A stretch of 64,000 bases of DNA from an uncultured Atopobiaceae bacterium (lineage in GTDB: Bacteria; Actinomycetota; Coriobacteriia; Coriobacteriales; Atopobiaceae): contig CANQOF010000011.1 of assembly GCA_947625405.1 (NCBI GenBank), positions 6,926-70,925 on the forward strand, read 5' to 3'. This document shows, in pieces, positions 14,423 through 40,776 of the stretch. Each line of letters begins with the position of its first letter. Within the stretch, counting starts at the first letter, position 1. The notes below the pieces were generated by a model. It ran no database searches. It saw nothing but the letters and a program-made list of their open reading frames with translations, and had not been told where the DNA came from. Position numbers and translations under genes: made by a program.

Positions 14423-17400
14423 CTAGGCGAGGCTCACGCCGGGCATGAGGGCGTACCACTTCACGCCCTGGTACTCCCAGCCAGCATCCTCGAGCGTGTC
14501 GATCTCGTTCATGTCCATGGTCCAGAGGTGCGTGCCCTCAGTCACGTAGGGGTTGAAGAACTGGACGATCGGATAGAGCGAGTTCTCGGTGTCGCTGTAG
14601 AAGACGGGCGTCTGGCCGTCGGTGGTCTCGAAGTCCTTGACCCAGCCAAGCTTCACGAGGCCCGCGATTTCCTCGGTGTTGCTCGTGTAGTAGTGGTCGT
14701 GGCTGTACGGGTTGTAGAGACGATAGACCGGGTCACCCGCGGCAGGCGAGTACCAAGCGATGCCATCGGGGCGCCAACCGGCGTTCAGGTTCGCCGTGAT
14801 CTCATTCTGTGCGGTGGTGAGCAGGTGCTCGCCGTTGTACGGGTTGTAGAGACGCATCACGGCAACCGGCGCGTCTTCAGCCACGCCGTCAATGGTAAGC
14901 GCGCCCTGCAGCTTCACGGGCGAAGTATCCGCCTGGCCCGCTTCGTTGATGTACACATTCATGTTGTAGATGCCCTGTGTGGAGTTCTTACCAGTGTTCA
15001 CAGGGATCGAGATCACGAAGGCGCCATTGCTCACGTCGGAGACGGTTATATCACCGAAGGTGACGCCATTCATGGTGCCAGAGTAACCACCATTGGTGAC
15101 GGGTGCGCCAGTTGAGGTGTAAGCAAGCCAGATGTTGCTCACATACTTGTCACTGGTCGAGCCCTTAGCCGTCATATTCACTGCCTTGCCAACCTCGATC
15201 ACCGAAGGATCAAGATTGATGTCAGTGATTTTGAGGCCTCGGTAGGGTGTCATGTTATTGGGCGCAAGTTTCACCGTCACAGGCACGGTGTAGGTTGCGG
15301 TTTCGCCAGCCATGATGGTTTGCGGAGAGCCCTCGAGCACGCCGTTGGTGATGTCGACGTCAAGCACACCGTAAACGGCCGCGTAGGTTACGTTTGCATT
15401 TGCGGTCGGAACCTCAGTGAGAGGATCAGCCAGCACGGGAACGGTCGCATCGGTAGCAGAGTTGATCTGATACCAGCCGAGGAAGAACGAAGCTTGCGGA
15501 TTCACGGTTGGGAGAGCGGCCACAGGCACGTTTTTGGAGGTGTCGGTGATGCTGGGGATGCCATTGAGGATGGTGTCGCCACCAGGCTCGGTGAAGTATA
15601 CGCCGATATTATCGTTCTCGTAACCAAACGCACCAGCTTCCGCCTTGGTCACGGTTGGGCTTTCCGCAGGCTGTGCAGTGGCACTGGTGCCATTTGCATT
15701 GAAGGACACCTGATAGGAGACCGGGATCGGATTCATGGTCACGCCGAGACTGCCCTCAGGATAAAGGCCGGTAATTGCGAGATTAGGGGCCTCATCGGTC
15801 GCGAGCGTAAGGGGCACGGTGGTGCCGGTGAACTTGTTGGTAAGCGCGAAGGCCGCCTTTGCGTTGTTCACGGTAACCACGGTTGGGCTCGATCCGCTGT
15901 TTATCCCGTTGAAGATCGTTGTTACGTCATTAGCAGCTGCGCCGGCAACGTTATCAGCCAGCGGATACGTGCTGTTTTGGAAGCTCGGGGCCATCTTGGC
16001 AGAGTAGGCGAAGACGTTTGTGAGGTCGGATGTAGACGTCGTTACGGAAACATTGTTGGCGACCACATAGCCATTGGGCATGGGGCTAGAGCCACTAACG
16101 AGAGTTGCACCCTTGGAAGAATTTGCCGGGGAGACCGTGGCGACGAAGCTTACGATCGGGTTCGGCATGATGACGACTTGGTTGTAGACAGGTGCGGTAA
16201 GGGCAGTATCCTCCGCGCGGCCAGCATAGTCGTAGATCTCCATGGGGAGGACGGGCTGGGGCTTCTCAGCGGTCGCAGCCGAAGCAGCGTTCGTGCCGCC
16301 GGTCACGTAGACCCACTTGTAATTGGAAGCCGCATTAGGAGTGTCCTGCACGGTGTCCGGAGTGATGGTGCTGCTAATCGCCTTCGAGCCCGCGGAGGTG
16401 TCCGTGGTGCTCACGGTGAGAGTCGGGCCGCCATTGGCGGAACGAGAGGCGTTTGAGACCGCGACGGTGCCCTCGATCCCGTAGCCAGGCGTGCTGTCAA
16501 CGGTAGAGGCGGTGGGAGCTCCACCGGAAGCGACGAGGGTGCCGCCACTTGCAACCACGTTGCCCTTGATGGCAGTTGCGGTCGTGGAGGTCGCCTCAAC
16601 CGTACCCGCGGCGAGGGTGAGGTTCCCGCTAGTCACGGTAGTGGCTATACCGGGAGCATCCACGGAGAGGATCCCCTCCGTGTTATCGCCGTTCACGCTT
16701 GTGCCAACACTAATGGCGTTAGCAGAAGTAAGACCGGTGCCGCTACCAGCGGTCACGTCTACCTCCACGGAGCCGCCGTTTGCCACGACGAGCGAAGTGT
16801 CAGCATCAGATACCGCAGTTAACTTACCGCTCAGGTTTACACCGTTCACGCTGAGGGTTTCCGCCTTCGTGCCTGTAGGTGCCGTCACGTTGGCCGTCAC
16901 CTCAACCGTTCCACCGTAGTTGGCAAGAGCGGTCGCACTCACGAGGTTTGTAATATTAGCATTCGGGTTGGCGGTCACGGAAAGGCTCGCGCCCGTAGCA
17001 GGCGCATCCGCGGTGCCGAGGAGGATCTCGTCGGCAGTGAGGGCGGCCATGTTACCGGTGCCCGTGAGCTCGATGCTCATACTGCCGTTCAGGACGAGAT
17101 TACCGGTTCTGCCGAGATCGACGGCAGGACCTCTAACGCTCGGGGACTTTACGGTGCAGTTAAGGGAGGAACCAGACTGAACGGTTACAACATTCCCGTC
17201 CTTGCTTCCTTCAACGAGAGCAGGACCGCTACCTGTATTGTTGAGGGTAACGGTTGCGTCGGACTTCTTGCCGCCCACAGTGAGCGTACCGGTGCCGAGT
17301 GCAAGGGAGCCCACGCTCCCGCCACTCATGCTGGCGGTGAGATCGAGGGAATCCGCGACGACGATGTCCGCATTCCCGGAATTGTTGATAGCAGCATTCG

Positions 17401-17890
17401 AGCTATTGGTGCTGGTGAAGGTCGCCGTTCCGGTACCACCAAGGGTCACGTCGGCATTGTTCCCAATAGCGAGTGCAGTCCCACTGGTGGTGAGGTTAGT
17501 GGTGCCCTCGAAGTTCACAAATGTGTCCACTGAGCCGTTGATATTGATAAGCGTGTTCGAGCTCGTGATGCTCCCGAGATTCGAGAACGTGATCGGGTTC
17601 GTGGCAGCATTCGCACCATTAAGCGCGATGGTGATCGCGCTTTGCGTCTCGCCCGCAATTGGCGAAATCGTGATGCCGGTAGATGGAACACTCGTAATGT
17701 TCGTGGCGCTAGTGATGCCGCTAGGAGCCTCTTCAGTCCCAGTGGCAACGATGTACCAACCGCCGTCCTCAAGCGGAGACATAGTCTCCGCTGGGTCGGC
17801 TACGGCCGGGGTGGCGACCACGACGGCTGCGAAGAGGGCCAGCAGCGCGGCGAAGACACCCCCAAATACCTTTTTCTTATTGGAACTCAT
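14423..17890 (-). CDS. large secreted Thr/Ser/Ala/Gly-rich surface protein A with three C-terminal YNPY...GW repeats
   Basis: The signal peptide MSSNKKKVFGGVFAALLALFAAVVVATPAVA|DP is near-identical to that of protein C. The long low-complexity T/S/N/G-rich region fits beta-helix or adhesin style. The C-terminal roughly 145 aa hold three tandem repeats RLYNPY..H..T......GW. AAGGAA lies upstream of the ATG at 17890. Confidence 0.8.
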   Translation of the reverse strand: MSSNKKKVFGGVFAALLALFAAVVVATPAVADPAETMSPLEDGGWYIVATGTEEAPSGITSATNITSVPSTGITISPIAGETQSAITIALNGANAATNPITFSNLGSITSSNTLININGSVDTFVNFEGTTNLTTSGTALAIGNNADVTLGGTGTATFTSTNSSNAAINNSGNADIVVADSLDLTASMSGGSVGSLALGTGTLTVGGKKSDATVTLNNTGSGPALVEGSKDGNVVTVQSGSSLNCTVKSPSVRGPAVDLGRTGNLVLNGSMSIELTGTGNMAALTADEILLGTADAPATGASLSVTANPNANITNLVSATALANYGGTVEVTANVTAPTGTKAETLSVNGVNLSGKLTAVSDADTSLVVANGGSVEVDVTAGSGTGLTSANAISVGTSVNGDNTEGILSVDAPGIATTVTSGNLTLAAGTVEATSTTATAIKGNVVASGGTLVASGGAPTASTVDSTPGYGIEGTVAVSNASRSANGGPTLTVSTTDTSAGSKAISSTITPDTVQDTPNAASNYKWVYVTGGTNAASAATAEKPQPVLPMEIYDYAGRAEDTALTAPVYNQVVIMPNPIVSFVATVSPANSSKGATLVSGSSPMPNGYVVANNVSVTTSTSDLTNVFAYSAKMAPSFQNSTYPLADNVAGAAANDVTTIFNGINSGSSPTVVTVNNAKAAFALTNKFTGTTVPLTLATDEAPNLAITGLYPEGSLGVTMNPIPVSYQVSFNANGTSATAQPAESPTVTKAEAGAFGYENDNIGVYFTEPGGDTILNGIPSITDTSKNVPVAALPTVNPQASFFLGWYQINSATDATVPVLADPLTEVPTANANVTYAAVYGVLDVDITNGVLEGSPQTIMAGETATYTVPVTVKLAPNNMTPYRGLKITDINLDPSVIEVGKAVNMTAKGSTSDKYVSNIWLAYTSTGAPVTNGGYSGTMNGVTFGDITVSDVSNGAFVISIPVNTGKNSTQGIYNMNVYINEAGQADTSPVKLQGALTIDGVAEDAPVAVMRLYNPYNGEHLLTTAQNEITANLNAGWRPDGIAWYSPAAGDPVYRLYNPYSHDHYYTSNTEEIAGLVKLGWVKDFETTDGQTPVFYSDTENSLYPIVQFFNPYVTEGTHLWTMDMNEIDTLEDAGWEYQGVKWYALMPGVSLA

Positions 17891-18230
17891 ACACAGGTTC
17901 CTTTCGTTCAACTGTTCTGGTCGTCCACCTAGCAGAGGCGACCATGTGTATGGACGTGCAAAAAGAAGCTCTTAGGGTTCTCGCGGCGATGGATCCCCAC
18001 GCGTCCGCACACCCCCTTCCGCGGTGGCGTGGACACCCGGCCCGCGAGGCTTATGGGGAATACACGACGTGAATGGAGACGCGCTCACGCGAAGCGCCGT
18101 GGCGCGGCATGCGCCACGAGTCGCCGCGAAAGCGCGAGGGAACCGCTGGTTTTTGGAAGATTTAGCGCCGCGAAGATTCGACAGCAGAAACGGAGCCAAG
18201 ACCCCTTCGGTTCTCAGCTCTTCTGAATGA

Positions 18231-18240
18231 CCCCCCCCCC
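18231..18240 (-). promoter_or_regulatory. G10 homopolymer (C10 on the + strand) in the conserved upstream box of gene A
   Basis: Exactly 10 C at 18231-18240, about 340 nt upstream of the ATG at 17890. The homologous position upstream of gene C has 9. Confidence 0.85.
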
Positions 18241-18558
18241 GCGAGCAAATCGCGAGGTAGGCGGGCATGATGCTCCTAGCTCGCACCATGACCGTTACTG
18301 TCCTCCTAGCATGTAAGGACCGTAATCGCTTGCGAACTCTAGCCCACGTAAGGGAGCGACGTCAAGCAACACGCCCGCCGAGCGGCGATTTCAGGGCACG
18401 GGGAGAGGGAGCGAAAGATTGCAAGGTAGCCGCAAAACAACCGCAACGCTTCCAGACGAACCGCACCATTTGCACTTAGTCTGCGCGAGGCCAGATGACT
18501 TTCTTGCCAGGCGAGACAAAGCAGAAAAACCCAGCCGGCGAATGCCGCGTGGCTCCCC

Positions 18559-20787
18559 CTACGAAGCGCGGAGGGTGGCGTAGAAGGCTACGTCCTCTTG
18601 CCGCCAGCCGAGGGTGGGGAGCACGGCGTACTCGTGGGGGTCGGCGGTCCAGTGGTGGGTGCCGGTAGTCTCGTAGGGGTTGAAGAGCTGGTAGACGGGC
18701 GTGGCGCTCGCACTCTCGCCGAAGAAGAGGGCCTCGCCCCCGTTGTCTGCGATCCAGCCGAGAGCCGTGAGGCTCTCCACCTCGGCTTTCTTCGTGGTGT
18801 AGTAGTGGTCGTAGTTGTAGGGGTTGTAGAGGCGGTAGACGTCCACGGGCCCCTCGACGGGCGCGTAGAAGGCGGTCCCCTCCTCCTCCCAGCCGCGGTT
18901 CACGTTCGCGCGGACCTCGGCCTGGTCGGTCGTGAGGAGGTGCTGGCCGTTGTAGGGGTTGTAGATCCTGAAGACGGTGACGCTGTCCTCGGGCGCGGCC
19001 ACGGAGCCGCCCTCGAAGACGGCCGTGTACACGGGCGCCGTCTCGCCCTCGGCGAGGACGACGGAGTACGGGCTCTGCGTGCTCACGATCGTGCCGTACT
19101 GGTTCTGCCAGCCGCGGAAGGTGGAGCCGTAGGGCTCAGTGACGGCAATGAGCGAGTATGTCTTCACGCCGTCCGCCGCCACGGCGATGCGCTGCGAGAC
19201 GCTGCCGAGGCCGTTGACGTTCACGGGGAGCGGATGCACGAGCGTGCTCGGGGCGCCGGGCGCGCCGGCGTCCGCCGCGGCGGAGGTGGGCCAGTAGGTG
19301 TAGGGCGCCTCGCCGCTCGCCGCCTCGGCCACGACCTCGATCTTCGAGTTCAGATAGCTCGTCTCGAGCGTGGAGGAGAAGTGCCCGGTGGAGACGTCGA
19401 TCGTCCCGCTCGCCGCGGGCGCGCTCGGCAGGGCAGCCTGGTACTGGCCGGATTGGTAGGCGATTGCGGGGATGCCCTCGGCGGCCACGAAGGTGCCGCC
19501 CGTGATGGCGCAGCTGCCCGCGCTCGCCGACGGCTGCGCGTAGCCCCGTTGCGCGCTCACGACCACCGCCGCCGGCACGTAGGCGATCTCCGCGCTCGAG
19601 CCCTCGGCCGTGGCGTCGCCCACGTTCACGGGCGCGCTCGAGGTGGCGGTGATGCCGCCGTTCGAGATGGCGAGCGTGGTGCCGAGCGAGACGATGCCCG
19701 CGCCGCCCGTGACGCTTCCGCCGGAGATGGTGCACTGGCTCGCCACGGACGCGCCCTCGGCGCTCGTGAGGCACATGCCGGCGCCCGCCGTGCCGCCCGC
19801 CACGGAGCCGCCCGTCATGGTGATCTCGATCACGCCGTCCGCACCGCCGAAGGTGGCGATGCCCGCGCTCGGGCCAAAGACTGAGCCGCCCTTGAGGAGC
19901 GCGATGTCCGCGCCGCCCGAGAGCGCGAGGCCATAGCCCGCCGCCTGCGCCGCCGGCACGCCGACGGTGCCCGCGTTCATCGTGATCGCGGCCTCGCCGT
20001 AGAGGCTGATCGCCGCGGAGCACTCCCCCGTTGCCGTCGCAACGCCCGTGAGGGCGCCCGCCGTGCCTCCGCCGGTGATGGTGCCGCCATCGAGCGTGAG
20101 CTCGCCGTAGCCGTCCATTCCGTAGGCGCTGCCGGCACGCGCGCCCTGCCCGAGGCAGATCGCGGAGCGCCCGCTCGTGGCGCTCACGTTGCCGGCTTTG
20201 AGCGCGAGCGCGGACACGCTCTCGTCCTCGTACATCACGCCGGGCACGAGGATCGCGTTGCCGTTCGCGGGCGCCGTGACGCTCGGGCCGTCGAGCGTGA
20301 GCGTGGGAGCGTGCTCCTCGCGCCCCGGCTCCTCCATGCCGAGCACGATCGTCGCCGGCACGGGGGTGCCCGGCGCGCCCGCGGAGGCGTTCGCGCTCGA
20401 GACGGTGCCCGCGCCCTTGAGCGTGAGGCTTCCCGAGGAGACCACGATCGCCGAGCGGCCCGATGAGGCCGTGAGGTTCTTGCCCGCGAGGTCGAGCGTG
20501 AGCGCGCCCTCGCCAAGCTTGAAGTCGAGCGCGGAGCTCGTGAGCACAATGTCGTCCGTGAGCGTGACGACGGCGCCGTCCTCGCTCGCGGTGGCCTTGT
20601 CGCCGAGCAAGCTCACGAGGCTCGCGGCGTCCGTGACCTCACCGCCCGCGACGTCGGTCGTCATGGGCGAGGCCTCGCGCGCCACGGCCGGGCGCGCCAC
20701 GAAGATCGCGAGAAGGGTGGCAAACACAGCAAACACGGCGAACACGCTGAGCGCGCTCGCCGCGAGATTCCAGGTAGTGCGTTTCAT
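18559..20787 (-). CDS. secreted Ala/Gly/Ser/Thr-rich surface protein B with three C-terminal YNPY...GW repeats
   Basis: Signal peptide MKRTTWNLAASALSVFAVFAVFATLLAIFVARPAVA. The body is G/A/S/T-rich and repetitive. The C-terminal triple repeat is IYNPYNGQHLLTT...GW. GGAGGAG lies upstream of the ATG at 20787. Confidence 0.8.
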   Translation of the reverse strand: MKRTTWNLAASALSVFAVFAVFATLLAIFVARPAVAREASPMTTDVAGGEVTDAASLVSLLGDKATASEDGAVVTLTDDIVLTSSALDFKLGEGALTLDLAGKNLTASSGRSAIVVSSGSLTLKGAGTVSSANASAGAPGTPVPATIVLGMEEPGREEHAPTLTLDGPSVTAPANGNAILVPGVMYEDESVSALALKAGNVSATSGRSAICLGQGARAGSAYGMDGYGELTLDGGTITGGGTAGALTGVATATGECSAAISLYGEAAITMNAGTVGVPAAQAAGYGLALSGGADIALLKGGSVFGPSAGIATFGGADGVIEITMTGGSVAGGTAGAGMCLTSAEGASVASQCTISGGSVTGGAGIVSLGTTLAISNGGITATSSAPVNVGDATAEGSSAEIAYVPAAVVVSAQRGYAQPSASAGSCAITGGTFVAAEGIPAIAYQSGQYQAALPSAPAASGTIDVSTGHFSSTLETSYLNSKIEVVAEAASGEAPYTYWPTSAAADAGAPGAPSTLVHPLPVNVNGLGSVSQRIAVAADGVKTYSLIAVTEPYGSTFRGWQNQYGTIVSTQSPYSVVLAEGETAPVYTAVFEGGSVAAPEDSVTVFRIYNPYNGQHLLTTDQAEVRANVNRGWEEEGTAFYAPVEGPVDVYRLYNPYNYDHYYTTKKAEVESLTALGWIADNGGEALFFGESASATPVYQLFNPYETTGTHHWTADPHEYAVLPTLGWRQEDVAFYATLRAS

Positions 20788-20879
20788 GAGCGGGGTCCTC
20801 TCCTCCAGCACGCACATAAAGGAAGGGCCTCGCTGAGCGCACGCTCAACGAGACCCTTCTCGCTAGGTTGAGTCCTCGC

Positions 20880-21105
20880 ATTCAGAGGACCGGAACCCGA
20901 ACTCATACCCTAGGGTCGAGCGTGCATAGGCCCTAGGAGGCGGGGGTCCGTCGACCCCCGCCTTGAACGTTCTCCGCCCGGGCGTAGCTGGCTGCTAGGG
21001 AAGCGAAGCGCCGAGCGGTCGATCGACGGGGATAGAGCAAAGGGTGGCGGGGGCTCGGGAGAGAGTTCCCAAGCTTTCCGGGCCCCCGCCTTGGGGACGC
21101 TAGCG
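20880..21105 (-). repeat. conserved 3' region of surface-protein genes, copy C
   Basis: Homologous to 14100-14420 with the same two GC-rich hairpins. Confidence 0.6.
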
Positions 21106-21110
21106 AGCCC

Positions 21111-24100
21111 TTAGAGGTTCGTTCCGGGGTAGGAGGCGAACCACTTCGGACCCTCGTTCTTCCAACCCACGGACGGGTTGATGAGCGAGGCGACCTCGAC
21201 GGTGTTGGTGGTCCAGAGGTGCGTACCAGAGGTCACGTACGGGTTGAAGAGCTGGAACACCGGATAGAGCGAGCTCTCGGTGTCGCCGTAGAAGACGGGC
21301 GTCTGAGTGCCGTCGGCGTTCACGAAGTCCTTCTCCCAGCCGAGGGTGACGAGGCTATTCACCTCGGCCTCATCGGTGGTGTAGTAGTGATCGTGGTTGT
21401 ACGGGTTGTAGAGACGATAGACAGCCTGGCCGTCGGCGGGAGCGAACCACGCGATGTCCTCGGGGAGCCAACCGGCGGTGAGGAGCGCGAGAGATTCATT
21501 TTGCACGGTGGTGAGCACGTGTTCGCCGTCGTACGGGTTGTAGTAACGGATGACCGCGATGTCCGCATCAGCGGCAACGCCATCGATGTTGAGAACACCT
21601 TGGAGAGTCGTGCCGTCTGTCGCGCTTAGACCATTGAGATTGAGCTTCACATTTACCTGATAGGCGCCCTGTGAAGCGTTTCCACCAGTCATAACGGGGA
21701 TGTCAAGCGTGTAGGTTCCCTCGGCTTCGCCGGCGGTAAGGCTCGGCTCGCCGAGCTGCACACCGTTCATTTCGCCATTGTCGGTGCCGGTACCGTAATT
21801 AATGGAATCATCACTGATGATGCTCTTACCATGATTCTGAATTTGAACCACGGAGGGATCGATTACGATCGCGGGCTCCTGAGTCTGAACGCCTGCAGGA
21901 GAAGGATTGATGTTGATTTTTAGCGTAGCGGTGTAGCTCCCACTCTCACCCGCCATGATGGAGATCGGGGAATTCCCAAGCACCAGATTCTTATTAACGA
22001 GCTCGAACTTTCCGTATAGCGCGTAATTGATAGTGTTTTGCGTGACCGGAGCTACCTCAGTTAGCGGTTCGGGGCCGTAGATATCTTGCCCGTCCTTGTT
22101 GAAGCTATGGGTGTACCAACCAAGCACGTAGGAGTTGTTATCCGCAACGATCGGCAGGTCGGTAACTTCAACAGATTCGACAGACTCGCTGCTCGGATCA
22201 GGAACGTTGTAGACCATGTTGCCAGTGCCAGGCTCAGTAAAGTAGATGCCCTGTGAGCCACCCTTGTTCCCGAAGTCGAGTACCACCGCATCCTTGTTAG
22301 TAGGATCGGGAGCAGGCTGGGAAACAGGATTGCTGGTTTGGCTGTTGAAAACCACCTGATAGGAAACGGGGATATTGGTTGCGCCCACAGTTGCCTTGTC
22401 GTAGAGTGCATCGACCACAGCGCTGCTCGAAAGATCAGCAACGGTCGTGGAAGCCTTCGTAGCAAGGCTTACTGAAGGCTCGGCGCCAGTGAGATTACCC
22501 GTCACCCAAACGCCATTTCTCAGAGTGGAAAGCGTTTGCTTGTTTGCGACAGCGCCAGCCGGCTGAGTCGCGATGCTCGAGCTTGGATCAGCAACCGTAC
22601 CCGCGTTCACACCCTTGGCAAGCGGATACGAGATGTTGTTGCTGAAGGCACCGGGGATAATGGTTACATCGTAGACATAGCCATCAGAGGCACTGCTCAC
22701 AGAGCCGATGTTCGCGACCATGTAGCCGTCAGGCATATTGAGGTGGTCTGCAGAGCCGTAAGAATTAGAAGCAGGAGTAATGCCGAGCTCCCAAGAAGTC
22801 ACCTTGGCAGGTTCAATCGTGAGGCTATTCCCTTGAGGCGTTACCGTAGCGCCCGTGCCCTTTTCATCGCCATCCATTCCAGCAAAACCATAGATCCTGG
22901 TTTCAAGTGCCGCCGGAGGAACGGCGTCAGGACCGGGCTCTTCATCAGGATCGGGAGCAGGCTTGTCCATGCCACCACCGGCATAGGCAACCCACTGATA
23001 ATTCTGGATCTCACTGGTACTCGGGACTGATTTTACAGTAATAGAATCACCTGCAACGGCAGGAGTGGCAGCAAGCGTGGAGATGTCACCCGCTTGGACG
23101 TTTACGGTTGGGCCATCGCTATTCGCAAGCGTGTTGGAAACCGTAAGAGTGCCACTGATGCCGCTTTGGGGAGTGTTTTCCACACCATCGAGGTAGGACG
23201 GGGTTACACCACCAGTGGCAGTGAGTTCGCCACCAGTAACTGTGACGTTCCCATCAATGCCAATACCAGCGCTCGAGGTTGCCGTCACGGAGCCATTGGC
23301 AAGAGTCGGATTGCCCTTGATGGCGGTCCCAGCAGAGGTAACCGTGAGGGTTCCCGCACTTGTAGCGCTTCCCACAGTCACGGTCCCCGCAGTCAGACCC
23401 ACTGTTTCAACACCAGAAGCGTTGCCGGTGGTAATGGTGGCGGAACCGTTAAGGGTGAGGGGACCTTCACCCAGATTCACATTGTCGGAGGCCTGACCAG
23501 TCGTCGAAGCGTTGAGGCTGCACCCCTTGGCAACGGTCATAGTCAGACTCGTAGCAGTGATGCATGGACCGTTTGTATTGCTCACGGTGAGGGACGGGGT
23601 GTTGGGATAGGTTGCCCCAGTTTCACTTGTTGGATCCGTAACGGCAGAATTGGCGCCCACATTGAGCGTAGAGGTCCCCATGGCCATAGCAGGGGTAGCC
23701 GCCACGTCTGTAGTTGCGGAGAGGGTGCCCGAACCCGTGAGGGAAACGCTCACACTAGACGCGTTATTTGCAACAGAGAAAACCGTCCCGTTGTTTGAAG
23801 ACGTGAACGAGTTACTACCCACAAGGTTAATGGTGAACGTGTTCTCCCCACCATCCGACCCGAGCGTAAGAGGCGTGGCCGTTGCATTGCTGGGGACACT
23901 CGCCGTAATCCCATTGAGGGTAATCACGGAGCCGGTGGCGCCCGATTGAGGAGCGATCACGAGAGGCAGCGTCGGTGTACCAGTTATCTGAACGGTAATA
24001 TCCGTAATGCTACTTGAAGGCTTCACGGTAACCGCTGTACTACTTTCCTCAATAAGGTCAGAGACATCCGCATCCTTATTGCTTGTTTGGTAGATGCCAT

Positions 24101-24236
24101 AACCCTGCTTGGAGGTGACATCCATCTCACCTGCCGGGTCGGCTACCGCCGGCGTGGCGACTACCACGGCGGCGAAGAGGGCAAGCAGCGCTGCCAGCGC
24201 TCCCGCCCAGATCTTCTTCTTAGGACTGTGGCTCAT
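21111..24236 (-). CDS. large secreted surface protein C, paralog of A, with three C-terminal YNPY...GW repeats
   Basis: The signal peptide MSHSPKKKIWAGALAALLALFAAVVVATPAVA|DP, a T/S/N/G-rich body, and a C-terminal module about 70% identical to that of A. AAGGAG lies upstream of the ATG at 24236. The track start at 24623 adds an Arg-rich non-protein-like extension. Confidence 0.8.
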   Translation of the reverse strand: MSHSPKKKIWAGALAALLALFAAVVVATPAVADPAGEMDVTSKQGYGIYQTSNKDADVSDLIEESSTAVTVKPSSSITDITVQITGTPTLPLVIAPQSGATGSVITLNGITASVPSNATATPLTLGSDGGENTFTINLVGSNSFTSSNNGTVFSVANNASSVSVSLTGSGTLSATTDVAATPAMAMGTSTLNVGANSAVTDPTSETGATYPNTPSLTVSNTNGPCITATSLTMTVAKGCSLNASTTGQASDNVNLGEGPLTLNGSATITTGNASGVETVGLTAGTVTVGSATSAGTLTVTSAGTAIKGNPTLANGSVTATSSAGIGIDGNVTVTGGELTATGGVTPSYLDGVENTPQSGISGTLTVSNTLANSDGPTVNVQAGDISTLAATPAVAGDSITVKSVPSTSEIQNYQWVAYAGGGMDKPAPDPDEEPGPDAVPPAALETRIYGFAGMDGDEKGTGATVTPQGNSLTIEPAKVTSWELGITPASNSYGSADHLNMPDGYMVANIGSVSSASDGYVYDVTIIPGAFSNNISYPLAKGVNAGTVADPSSSIATQPAGAVANKQTLSTLRNGVWVTGNLTGAEPSVSLATKASTTVADLSSSAVVDALYDKATVGATNIPVSYQVVFNSQTSNPVSQPAPDPTNKDAVVLDFGNKGGSQGIYFTEPGTGNMVYNVPDPSSESVESVEVTDLPIVADNNSYVLGWYTHSFNKDGQDIYGPEPLTEVAPVTQNTINYALYGKFELVNKNLVLGNSPISIMAGESGSYTATLKININPSPAGVQTQEPAIVIDPSVVQIQNHGKSIISDDSINYGTGTDNGEMNGVQLGEPSLTAGEAEGTYTLDIPVMTGGNASQGAYQVNVKLNLNGLSATDGTTLQGVLNIDGVAADADIAVIRYYNPYDGEHVLTTVQNESLALLTAGWLPEDIAWFAPADGQAVYRLYNPYNHDHYYTTDEAEVNSLVTLGWEKDFVNADGTQTPVFYGDTESSLYPVFQLFNPYVTSGTHLWTTNTVEVASLINPSVGWKNEGPKWFASYPGTNL

Positions 24237-24661
24237 ACACAGTCTCCTTTCCTTGGTTCCTTTGACACCCCCACCTAGCGAAAGGGGCGCTATTTCCTGA
24301 GAGACGGTTCCTTGGGGATGCGCTCCCCTGAACTGCGCGGCCCTGCCGCGCGCCTCACGCAAAGGGGCGTCCCCTCTGCCGGATGCGCGCGCTGCGGGCT
24401 CCTCCCACTCCTGGCCCGCGGGCTTGATGCGCGACGACCTCGCTCCGCGCGCTTCCTTGGGAATGGCGAGCGCGCGGCTGTGCACACGAAAACGCGCCCT
24501 CGAGCGAGCGGAGTTGGGCGCGCGTGAACGCGCACGCGGAATCGCTCGCGAGAACGCCGGAAACTGCCGAGTGGGATACGAATTGAGGGTGCTGCTCGAG
24601 GCTCTCTCGCCTCGACACGACAAAACAGACTAGGGGCCTCTCGCCTTCTAGCCTATGACGA

Positions 24662-24670
24662 CCCCCCCCC
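24662..24670 (-). promoter_or_regulatory. G9 homopolymer (C9 on the + strand) in the conserved upstream box of gene C
   Basis: Nine C at 24662-24670, about 430 nt upstream of the ATG at 24236. Confidence 0.85.
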
Positions 24671-24953
24671 GCGCTAGCCCGCGGGAAGAGAGCGGTTTAG
24701 ATGCCCTAGCAAGCACCATGCCGCGTAAGAGTCCCTCCTAGCAAAGGTCTCCTTCGAAGCGGGAGCTTAAGCCAACCCCGCCGCGCGGTCAAATCTCCCC
24801 CGCCGAACGCGCGGCTTTTGACACGGATTCGTTACGTCGCGCGGCGGCGGGGGGCGCCACTTAGGATGGATAGCCGGCGAATGCCGAATGGTTCATCTCC
24901 CCAGGGAGCTGTGCTGCGTGGAGGAAACGTGCTTTGGCGAATGAGCGATGACG

Positions 24954-25092
24954 GCGCGCTATACTGGAACGCGGAAAACGGCAAGGCCCGCGTGTGGTTA
25001 AAAAGGGAGCGGGCGGCGCGGTTTCGTGAGGGAGACGGAGTTCCTACCTCCGTCTCCTCTTTTGTGCCCTGCGTCTCCGCACGGAGCGTTTC
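24954..25092 (+). repeat. 137-bp direct repeat, left copy (DR-L), flanking the low-GC island
   Basis: Aligns with 28692-28828 at roughly 88% identity by eye. It contains TATACT (24960-24965), the hairpin GGAGACGGAG/CTCCGTCTCC (25031-25057) followed by TCTTTTG, and a relic of the C-terminal codons KRSVRRRRAQKRRRR* on the minus strand. Confidence 0.85.
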
Positions 25093-25099
25093 ATACCAG

Positions 25100-25132
25100 C
25101 CATCTGGCTCTGCGCGGCGCAGAGCCAGATGG
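25100..25132. promoter_or_regulatory. perfect 16-bp-arm palindrome at the inner edge of DR-L
   Basis: CCATCTGGCTCTGCGC-G-GCGCAGAGCCAGATGG, followed within 20 nt by CTCTTTTTG. It could be a terminator, an operator or a recombination site. Confidence 0.6.
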
Positions 25133-25237
25133 TCTAGGCCTTGCCGCTCTTTTTGTGAGCTTTTGCATGTGAGAGTTTGGATCTCGTGGGCGCACTATCA
25201 TCACTCACATAAGCTCGCACCATTGAAATGCATCGCC

Positions 25238-32558: not shown

Positions 32559-32846
32559 GAGTGCCTCCGAACGTGCGACGGTTGCGCGCAGCCGCCTCGT
32601 GCGCGCGGCCGCGTGGCCTATTGTGCCGCAGAGCGCACTCGCGCAAAGCGGGCACAAGACACGCAGGATTCGGGTAGAATGAGTGCAACCGCAGAACCCG
32701 CTACTCTGCTTTAGTCGCTACGCGGGCGACGCTTGTGAGGCCGGGCTGCACCCCGGCCTCGCGCGTGTTTGGCGCGGTTGCTTCGTCGCCACCACCACCC
32801 ACTCACAAGTAGACTGAAACGCGGGGTCTTTGCGAAGGAGGGCGTC

Positions 32847-40418: not shown

Positions 40419-40776
40419 AGCGTCGGCTTCCTTTCGGGTGCCTTTCCCGTCGTCTGCCCGCGCGAGCGCCGTGAGGCGCCGGCGAGCAAGGCCCCTTCCC
40501 AGCTGACCTGGTCTTCGACCCCACACCCGCGCACCGGGACCGTCGCTTCGGGCACCGCGGTGCCCCCACGGTTGGTCCTCTCTCCCCGAGGAACGGCGTC
40601 CCTCTCGCGAAGGGAGGTGCGACTTACGTCTAGAACGAGCCGTGATCGCCCGGGTGCGCGCACCCGGGTTTACGTGGGTCCGTTGGGCCTCGTCTGCCAT
40701 GGACTTGGACGGGAAAGCTCGCGCCCATCCCGCCCGCAACCACAGACCTGGCAAGGGACCCTTGAAGTATACCAAC

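Follow-up and report, generated by a model that had tools for sequence, protein, structure and literature searches.

Poly-G tracts within a conserved upstream open reading frame: a likely frame switch in the leaders of paralogous adhesin genes of an uncultured Atopobiaceae bacterium

In Neisseria pilC and in Campylobacter jejuni, tracts of 8-12 G near the 5′ end of the coding sequence toggle its reading frame; many loci are of this kind, and they cluster on surface proteins. The pil1 locus of Streptococcus gallolyticus carries its repeat, (GCAGA)n, in a 38-aa leader peptide encoded upstream of a stem-loop terminator, and slippage of the repeat sets the position of the leader stop codon and hence pilus transcription (Danne et al., 2014; PMC3894217). 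The rule at this locus is that a leader stop within the terminator corresponds to the ON state, while the short form of the leader stops 39 bp upstream of the terminator (PMC3894217). For uspA1 of Moraxella catarrhalis, G9 is associated with low and G10 with high mRNA levels in two strains, the tract lying 29 bp upstream of the open reading frame (ORF) (PMC7302503 and its reference 20). In Bifidobacterium breve UCC2003, replication slippage at G-tracts inside sortase-dependent pilus genes switches the genes on and off (Penno et al., 2022; PMC9187656). In the literature found, only the S. gallolyticus pili have been shown to phase-vary by means of a repeat located in a translated leader. Here, two poly-G tracts are described upstream of the paralogous genes A and C, which encode large secreted proteins of an uncultured Atopobiaceae bacterium. 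They lie in a 64,000-nucleotide stretch of DNA (the window) on contig C11 (CANQOF010000011.1) of a 33-contig genome (G000) of 1.73 Mb that is 98.5% complete. Each tract falls within a conserved upstream ORF (uORF) of the leader, and the most likely reading, held with moderate confidence, is that it acts as a frame switch in this translated leader ORF and thereby gates adhesin expression.

A sequence-only reading of the window had placed a G10 tract about 340 nt upstream of the ATG of gene A and a G9 tract about 430 nt upstream of that of gene C, and had noticed no longer homopolymer, no exhaustive scan having been made. The distances prove to be 340 nt (ATG at 17890) and 425 nt (ATG at 24236), and the window, at 65.9% G+C, contains no other homopolymer of 7 or more. 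The tracts were also rightly seen at the same edge of a conserved box: both copies of the box finish Gn-TC, and local alignment of leaders A and C returns 86 bp with 62/86 identities (72%; E = 7e-8). This genome has three copies of the box core, GCTAGG-N12-18-CATGGTGC-NN-GCTAGG, one in front of each of A, C and a third paralogue, D (contig C3); further copies are present in three sister species and in one Logan assembly (P0002). What had been described as the unalignable rest of the leaders holds further similarities, namely a 23-nt GGCATTCGCCGGCT motif upstream, the ribosome-binding site (RBS) region, the hairpin that follows the tract and the reading frame that crosses it. The main revision concerns placement, the tracts having been assigned to a promoter or leader. 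The footprinted promoter lies about 100 nt farther upstream, and the tract is coding sequence, at codons 17-20 of the uORF. Slipped-strand control of A and C is still the likeliest interpretation, on the different basis that the tract sets the frame of a conserved uORF.

The GGCATTCGCCGGCT motif itself lies about 170-230 nt upstream of the box and is identical at 20/23 positions between leaders A and C (18533-18546 and 24872-24885 of the window, minus strand). The copy of A directly follows the stop codon of gene B, and a variant, GCATTCTCCGGCT, is located upstream of the D leader (L013).

The uORF begins at an invariant ATG, that of CATGGTGC, and is open in all eight leaders of the genus once the tract is set to G10, with products of 105-165 aa. 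Counted from this ATG in seven leaders, frame 0 contains no stop, and the remaining two sense frames contain 17 and 22; the Poisson probability of finding none in frame 0 is about 3e-9, the relatedness of the leaders being ignored. The possibility that an antisense gene keeps the frame open was rejected, as the antisense frames contain stops. The distance from the ATG to the RGPG motif near the end of the uORF varies widely (243, 243, 261, 270, 282, 300, 405 and 408 nt) and is always a multiple of three with the tract as G10. The D-type uORFs, which have no G-run, encode 114, 106, 118 and 165 aa and that of the Logan copy 108 aa, ending 78-86 nt before the adhesin ATG; in the Logan copy, which comes from an independent assembly, the uORF is followed after 86 nt by a gene of at least 970 aa. 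The uORF has been recorded by gene callers only twice among 5.8 billion proteins, and a far-upstream homopolymer can be misfiled as a promoter element where the small ORF around it is unannotated.

The leaders that are natively out of frame are exactly the two G9 copies, that of C here and that of the A orthologue in the sister species G004, each by -1. In these copies the uORF ends after 23-24 codons, and one added G extends it to 121 and 159 codons, respectively. When tract length was varied in silico, G10 or G7 gave a uORF of 105, 121 or 159 aa, and G8, G9 and G11 gave 21-42 aa. ON (G10) and OFF (G9) states are thus named by frame, and both are present among the three tract-bearing leaders; the orthologous A leaders, the sole orthologous pair available for the leader, differ in being G10 here and G9 in G004. 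Beyond the early stop, the OFF copies retain 101 and 139 stop-free codons (chance 0.10 and 0.044), with the shared C-terminal motif included. Intact frames of this sort would be predicted only if they are at times translated; an open frame preserved downstream in an OFF copy classically marks a frame switch that can be reversed, and not a dead gene. As at known slipped-strand loci, the tracts are homopolymers of at least 8, a change of one unit alters the uORF frame in silico, and there are several tracts per genome, at surface-protein genes. The retained frames would also be explained if the shift were made good at the RNA level, by RNA polymerase, for which long homopolymers are known slippage sites, or by ribosomal frameshifting; a fixed fraction of products would then be in frame, giving a set level rather than a heritable switch. 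This explanation is very unlikely, as it accounts neither for the difference in DNA length between orthologues nor for the concentration of the tracts at contingency-type genes. Moreover, in the actinobacterial relative B. breve, slippage of a pilus-gene G-tract has been shown at the DNA level (PMC9187656). As a separate observation, the frame of gene C is open for 137 codons upstream of its own ATG (24237-24647, minus strand) and coincides with the G9-state uORF frame after the UAG; this is probably due to chance (about 0.04).

All eight leaders contain TTGAC(G) or TTGAAA, a 17-18-nt spacer of unrelated sequence and TAnnnT, at a constant distance upstream of the box. This constant layout of the -35 and -10 elements around a variable spacer identifies a phylogenetically footprinted sigma-70-type promoter. 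Transcription would start about 15-20 nt before the first GCTAGG, which puts the G-run at a predicted position of about +100 in the transcript. The sequence-only reading implied that tract length controls promoter or activator spacing, as in Bordetella fim and Neisseria porA/opc, and the sharing of a conserved box ending in a homopolymer between paralogous surface-protein genes would suit such control. In those switches, however, the tract is found between the -35 and -10 elements, beside them or beside an activator site; in leaders A and C, a promoter scan and inspection revealed no promoter-like hexamers flanking the tract, the promoter is well upstream of it in every leader, and the tract is inside a conserved ORF, so that spacing control is extremely improbable. 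Just upstream of the -35, most leaders carry a palindrome, CGCTCGGCG(A/G)GCG (in A at 18372-18384, minus strand), that could be an upstream terminator or an operator.

Single-sequence and consensus folds predict a series of RNA hairpins, P1 to P5, and a helix, P6, arranged alike in all leaders (Table 1). P1 would hold the first GCUAGG together with the Shine-Dalgarno (SD)-like site, and P2 the AUG of the uORF, with the second GCUAGG in its loop. P3, to which the G-run contributes, is variable; the G004 orthologue has the same stem with a different loop. Comparison of A-, C- and D-type leaders reveals several compensatory pairs in P4, whose U-rich tail is conserved. The third UGCUAGG is presented on P5 in 7/8 leaders, the Logan copy being without a third GCUAGG. 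P6 is a helix of 8 bp, and 8/8 pairs are kept in 6/6 A- and D-type leaders examined; a double change, CAUAGACA/UGUCUAUG, in 3/6 leaders makes one pair CG in three and GC in three. In those six leaders the uORF stop is always 15-23 nt upstream of the 5′ arm of P6, though uORF length ranges over 105-159 aa. The OFF-state stops fall in the 5′ arm of P4 as UGA (A at G9), UAA (G004 at G9) or UAG (C), and those of C do so at G8, G9 and G11 alike; for A at G8 or G11 the stop is about 20 nt past P4. It is extremely doubtful that the G-run is instead the target of a C/U-rich small RNA (sRNA), with its length tuning the pairing, as in Helicobacter pylori RepG-tlpB, where sRNA pairing with a leader G-run is tuned by length according to a mention in PMC12721329. 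The run does lie within a long transcribed leader, yet it is already paired in P3, the frame logic suffices without an sRNA, and no candidate sRNA was seen, though none was sought. An Rfam scan of the window returned no match in 17800-25200. Its matches, all outside this interval, are a full-length raiA RNA motif (40494-40756, minus strand; 133.5 bits against a gathering threshold of 101.3), a tRNA and a borderline Collinsella-1 RNA (32622-32758, plus strand; 37.3 bits against 35).

Table 1. Features of the leaders of genes A and C and of related loci. Positions refer to the window unless a contig of the same genome is named.
Feature	Position	Strand	Description
Gene A	14423-17890	minus	1155-aa secreted protein, C-terminal DUF5648
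P6	17888-17952	minus	CAUACACA (17952-17945) pairs with UGUGUAUG (17895-17888); start codon of gene A inside
P5	17919-17943	minus	presents third UGCUAGG; compensatory pairs GC/AU, CG/UA
uORF-A	17972-18289	minus	105 aa, G10 in frame (ON); begins MVRARSIM, ends ...IPHKPRGPGVHATAEGGVRTRGDPSPREP and stop
P4 of leader A	18185-18225	minus	terminator-like hairpin with U-rich tail; G9-state UGA in 5′ arm
G10 tract	18231-18240	minus (18240-18231)	nt 50-59 of uORF-A (codons 17-20) and 3′ arm of P3
P3	18233-18261	minus	pyrimidine tract + CGCG pairs with CGCG + poly-G; local fold -24.3 kcal/mol, z = -3.1
SD-like AGGAGG	18302-18307	minus	inside first GCTAGG and P1; 12 nt before uORF ATG
Leader A promoter	18336-18365	minus	TTGACG, 18-nt spacer, TAGAGT; only sigma-70-like site found in 17800-25200
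Gene B	20817-18559	minus	C-terminal DUF5648
Gene C	21111-24236	minus	1041-aa secreted protein, C-terminal DUF5648; paralogue of A
uORF-C continuation if G10	24355-24661	minus	stop-free, 121 aa in all; shared ARGPGV motif in frame
P4 of leader C	24625-24656	minus	hairpin with UGUUUUGU tail
uORF-C, present G9 (OFF) state	24648-24719	minus	23 aa; stop UAG in 5′ arm of P4
G9 tract	24662-24670	minus (24670-24662)	nt 50-58 of uORF-C and 3′ arm of P3
Leader C promoter	24764-24792	minus	TTGACC, 17-nt spacer, TAAGCT; aligns with promoters of other leaders
G9/G10 runs at further giant adhesin-like genes	C10:68132-68140; C1:155102-155111; C2:49098-49106; C19:18549-18558

Long G/C runs are over-represented in the genome as a whole. 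There are 229 runs of length 6, 22 of 7 and 2 of 8, followed by five G9 and four G10; the counts drop about 10-fold per added base up to length 8 and then rise. Extrapolation predicts 0.22 runs of at least 9, and nine are observed, an excess of about 40-fold (Poisson P about 3e-12) from which it follows that the tracts are not due to chance. Of the 11 runs of at least 8, six are no more than 300 nt from the 5′ end of a giant ORF (open frame 1172-3550 aa), a placement with P about 5e-10 given the 58 such ORFs in the genome, and these six are always G on the coding strand. The six giant proteins are all adhesin-like: DUF5648 is found in A, in C and in a 3549-aa protein that also has a GBS104-type immunoglobulin (Ig) domain, and the other three contain DUF7601/DUF5979/SpaA-type Ig folds with BspA-type leucine-rich repeats, DUF7601 with DUF11, and Listeria-Bacteroides repeats, respectively. 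The run at C10:68132 is of the classical intragenic type: this G9 follows the signal peptide in frame, in a protein of at least 1793 aa. Those on contigs C1, C2 and C19 precede the starts of the 1604-, 3549- and at least 2629-aa proteins by 49, about 170 and about 100 nt, respectively; a conserved uORF was looked for at these three loci and not found, and their tracts may work differently from those of A and C. Two further runs are candidate contingency sites. One, a G9 (C16:5328-5336), precedes by a few bases the longest open frame of a 432-aa gene; an epimerase-like gene comes next, possibly in a polysaccharide locus. The other, a C8 (C5:63142-63149), lies immediately 5′ of the RBS of a 473-aa gene.

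The other five species of the genus have 16, 11, 11, 4 and 1 runs of at least 8 per genome, with a mode of 9-10, and two of the seven orthologous or paralogous tract groups in the genus differ by one G. The flanks of 39 runs of at least 9 G from the six genomes of the genus are mildly A/T-rich at -6 to -9 (often GAAAAT-like), with G at -2 and T at +1. This T is often followed by TCGCTC, and the context resembles a -10 element placed for a transcription start within the run. MutS domain I is absent from the genome of the host, as is usual in Actinomycetota, and its absence is associated with poor repair of homopolymer indels.

The G-run might alternatively have a purely structural and fixed role, as the 3′ arm of P3 within a regulatory leader RNA that does not switch, in which case the G9/G10 difference would be neutral, a consensus error or a permanent inactivation. 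The run does pair with the upstream pyrimidine tract in a stable hairpin in 3/3 copies, a hairpin lacking a G-run occupies the corresponding place in the D-type leaders, and the remaining five of the seven tract groups have identical lengths. A homopolymer is not required for a hairpin, however. Nor would a fixed arm account for G9 copies that are exactly the leaders displaced by -1 and that keep long intact downstream frames with their motif, or for G9-G10 runs that are over-represented, clustered at adhesin 5′ ends and in one case in frame in a coding region. A purely structural role is accordingly judged unlikely.

In the proposed frame switch, a leader of 450-530 nt would be transcribed from the conserved sigma-70-type promoter and would itself be translated. 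Replication slippage would change the run by one G and turn full-length leader translation on or off, tract length varying within populations, the property that defines phase variation, and the adhesin depending on uORF translation. At G10 (or G7), ribosomes would translate the whole leader to the normal end of the uORF, keeping P4 from forming and Rho, which is encoded in the genome, from loading, so that termination would not occur; ribosomes terminating next to P6 would then open the start site of the adhesin. At G9, G8 or G11, ribosomes would come off at P4 or just beyond it, having read 21-42 codons, and the 190-400 nt of leader left untranslated would stay folded, with the result that transcription would terminate, at P4 or through Rho, or that the start site would stay masked. 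In the sequenced assembly, A would be ON (G10, 105 aa) and C OFF (G9).

Several observations weigh against this mechanism. The SD-like site is 12-14 nt from the uORF ATG, a long spacing. G+C is about 0.65 at all three codon positions of the uORF, with no bias, and dN/dS is about 1 over its N-terminal third, which overlaps the RNA hairpins. A Pfam search with the uORF product returned no match, and AlphaFold gives it a pLDDT (predicted local distance difference test) of 51.5 and no secondary structure, from a shallow alignment; conservation of the frame is the only sign that the uORF is translated. The identical lengths of five of the seven tract groups count here as well, and the data comprise three tract-bearing leaders from metagenome-assembled genomes (MAGs), so that the difference between G9 and G10 could be a one-base consensus error. 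The U-tail of P4 is weak in A-type leaders (three U's). Finally, the OFF stops are inside P4, a position that by the S. gallolyticus rule would itself prevent termination. As these stops are within P4 and not well upstream of it, the sequence does not settle which tract length gives the adhesin-ON state, and it is for this reason that Rho polarity and the unmasking of P6 are offered instead.

The uORF products have three segments in common, N-terminal MV(L/R)AR, central (A/P)xF(L/V)LS and C-terminal IPHKPRGPGV..AEGGVRTRGDP, separated by hypervariable sequence with large indels. Over the C-terminal motif dN/dS is 0.26-0.55, and most changes are at third positions. On the simplest interpretation, what counts is that the leader is translated, more than what most of the peptide is, although the C-terminal motif may have a function. 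A different proposal takes the small protein as the target of the switch: an Arg-rich, disordered, cis-encoded factor, either an N-like antiterminator or an RNA-binding activator of the three UGCUAGG hairpins, on which the adhesin would depend in place of the act of translation. The conserved C-terminal motif and the presence of three similar hairpins in one leader are in keeping with such a factor, and the uORF product is basic and predicted to be unfolded, as Arg-rich RNA-binding peptides typically are. The flat codon-position G+C, the N-terminal dN/dS, the indel-rich middle and the lack of a Pfam match count against it, however, and the Logan copy is without one of the three supposed targets; the proposal is rather improbable. 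By analogy with lambda N and Tat, each adhesin would have a private phase-variable activator acting in cis on its own UGCUAGG hairpins, an arrangement to which we give equally little credence. If it existed, the activator would drive antitermination or open the masked start, and the poly-G would toggle each paralogue independently.

The host is a bacterium of the rabbit gut, its relatives are uncultured Atopobiaceae MAGs of the same habitat, and the box appears to be confined to the genus. An exact-pattern scan of about 185,000 species genomes and a metagenome collection found the true box only in four MAGs of the same genus. A promoter-like look-alike in Actinomycetes (L019, L023, L024 and L026), TTGACA-N17-GCTAGGGT...CATGGTGCGCGCTAGGGT, was rejected as an unrelated element in which the first GCTAGG overlaps a -10-like TAGGGT; the resemblance is probably coincidental. 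With a covariance model of P1-P2, strong matches among 272 genomes of the family came only from the genus, and weak matches outside it were within ordinary coding sequences. A loose pattern for the box followed by poly-G, applied to 201 genomes of the family, recovered the two copies of G000 and one of G004 (the A orthologue) and no others. Exact-protein look-ups of A, C and uORF-A in other assemblies found none, and a homologue search with A retrieved no further leaders, the adhesin bodies being too variable. The genus nevertheless offers a natural control set, as D-type leaders are without the tract and A/C-type leaders with it.

A and C have a common signal peptide. Leader A and its G004 orthologue (window 17880-18560 against G004:C42; L010/L021) are 85% identical over about 390 of 681 nt, and the adhesins behind them share about 12% of their length, at 46% identity. 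The cassette of promoter, leader and signal peptide has been kept between the species while the adhesin body was swapped or is hypervariable. Gene B has neither its own box nor its own leader. Directly before its first ATG stands a hairpin with a stem of 17 pairs (20822-20859, minus strand), and B may either share a transcript with C or be set apart from it by this structure.

Among described systems, S. gallolyticus pil1/pil3 is the closest. In both cases the repeat is in a leader ORF with its own RBS and ATG, downstream of the promoter; the leader contains a stem-loop, which is a terminator at pil1 and, as P4, terminator-like here; slippage shifts (here would shift) the leader stop; and long translation is thought (here proposed) to allow expression of a downstream surface adhesin, in a Gram-positive gut bacterium. 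The differences are nonetheless considerable. The repeat here is a G homopolymer and not (GCAGA)n, and the ORF is not a 38-aa repeat peptide but is 105-165 aa long, conserved in the genus and equipped with a shared C-terminal motif, its long form being the in-frame conserved one. The OFF stops are inside the hairpin or just past it and not 39 bp upstream, so that one defining feature of the pil1 switch is absent. Three UGCUAGG hairpins and a start-codon-masking helix are additional elements, the host belongs to the Actinomycetota, the cargo consists of non-pilus DUF5648 proteins, and the system is known from sequence alone. M. catarrhalis uspA1 likewise has a poly-G tract upstream of an adhesin ORF; in that Gram-negative pathogen no leader ORF has been described, and tract length has a graded effect without frame periodicity. 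B. breve UCC2003 is, like the present host, an actinobacterial gut commensal with G-tracts at surface-structure genes, but its tracts lie inside the pilus gene itself, a direct arrangement found here at C10:68132, whereas A and C have a separate upstream ORF. Unlike Neisseria pilC and C. jejuni genes, in A and C it is the frame of a leader ORF that is toggled, and any effect on the adhesin must be indirect. The same logic would here be assembled from different parts in a high-GC actinobacterial commensal, namely a poly-G run, a long conserved leader ORF, a terminator-like hairpin and a start-masking helix, which suggests that translated-leader switches recur as a means of stochastic adhesin expression in gut bacteria.

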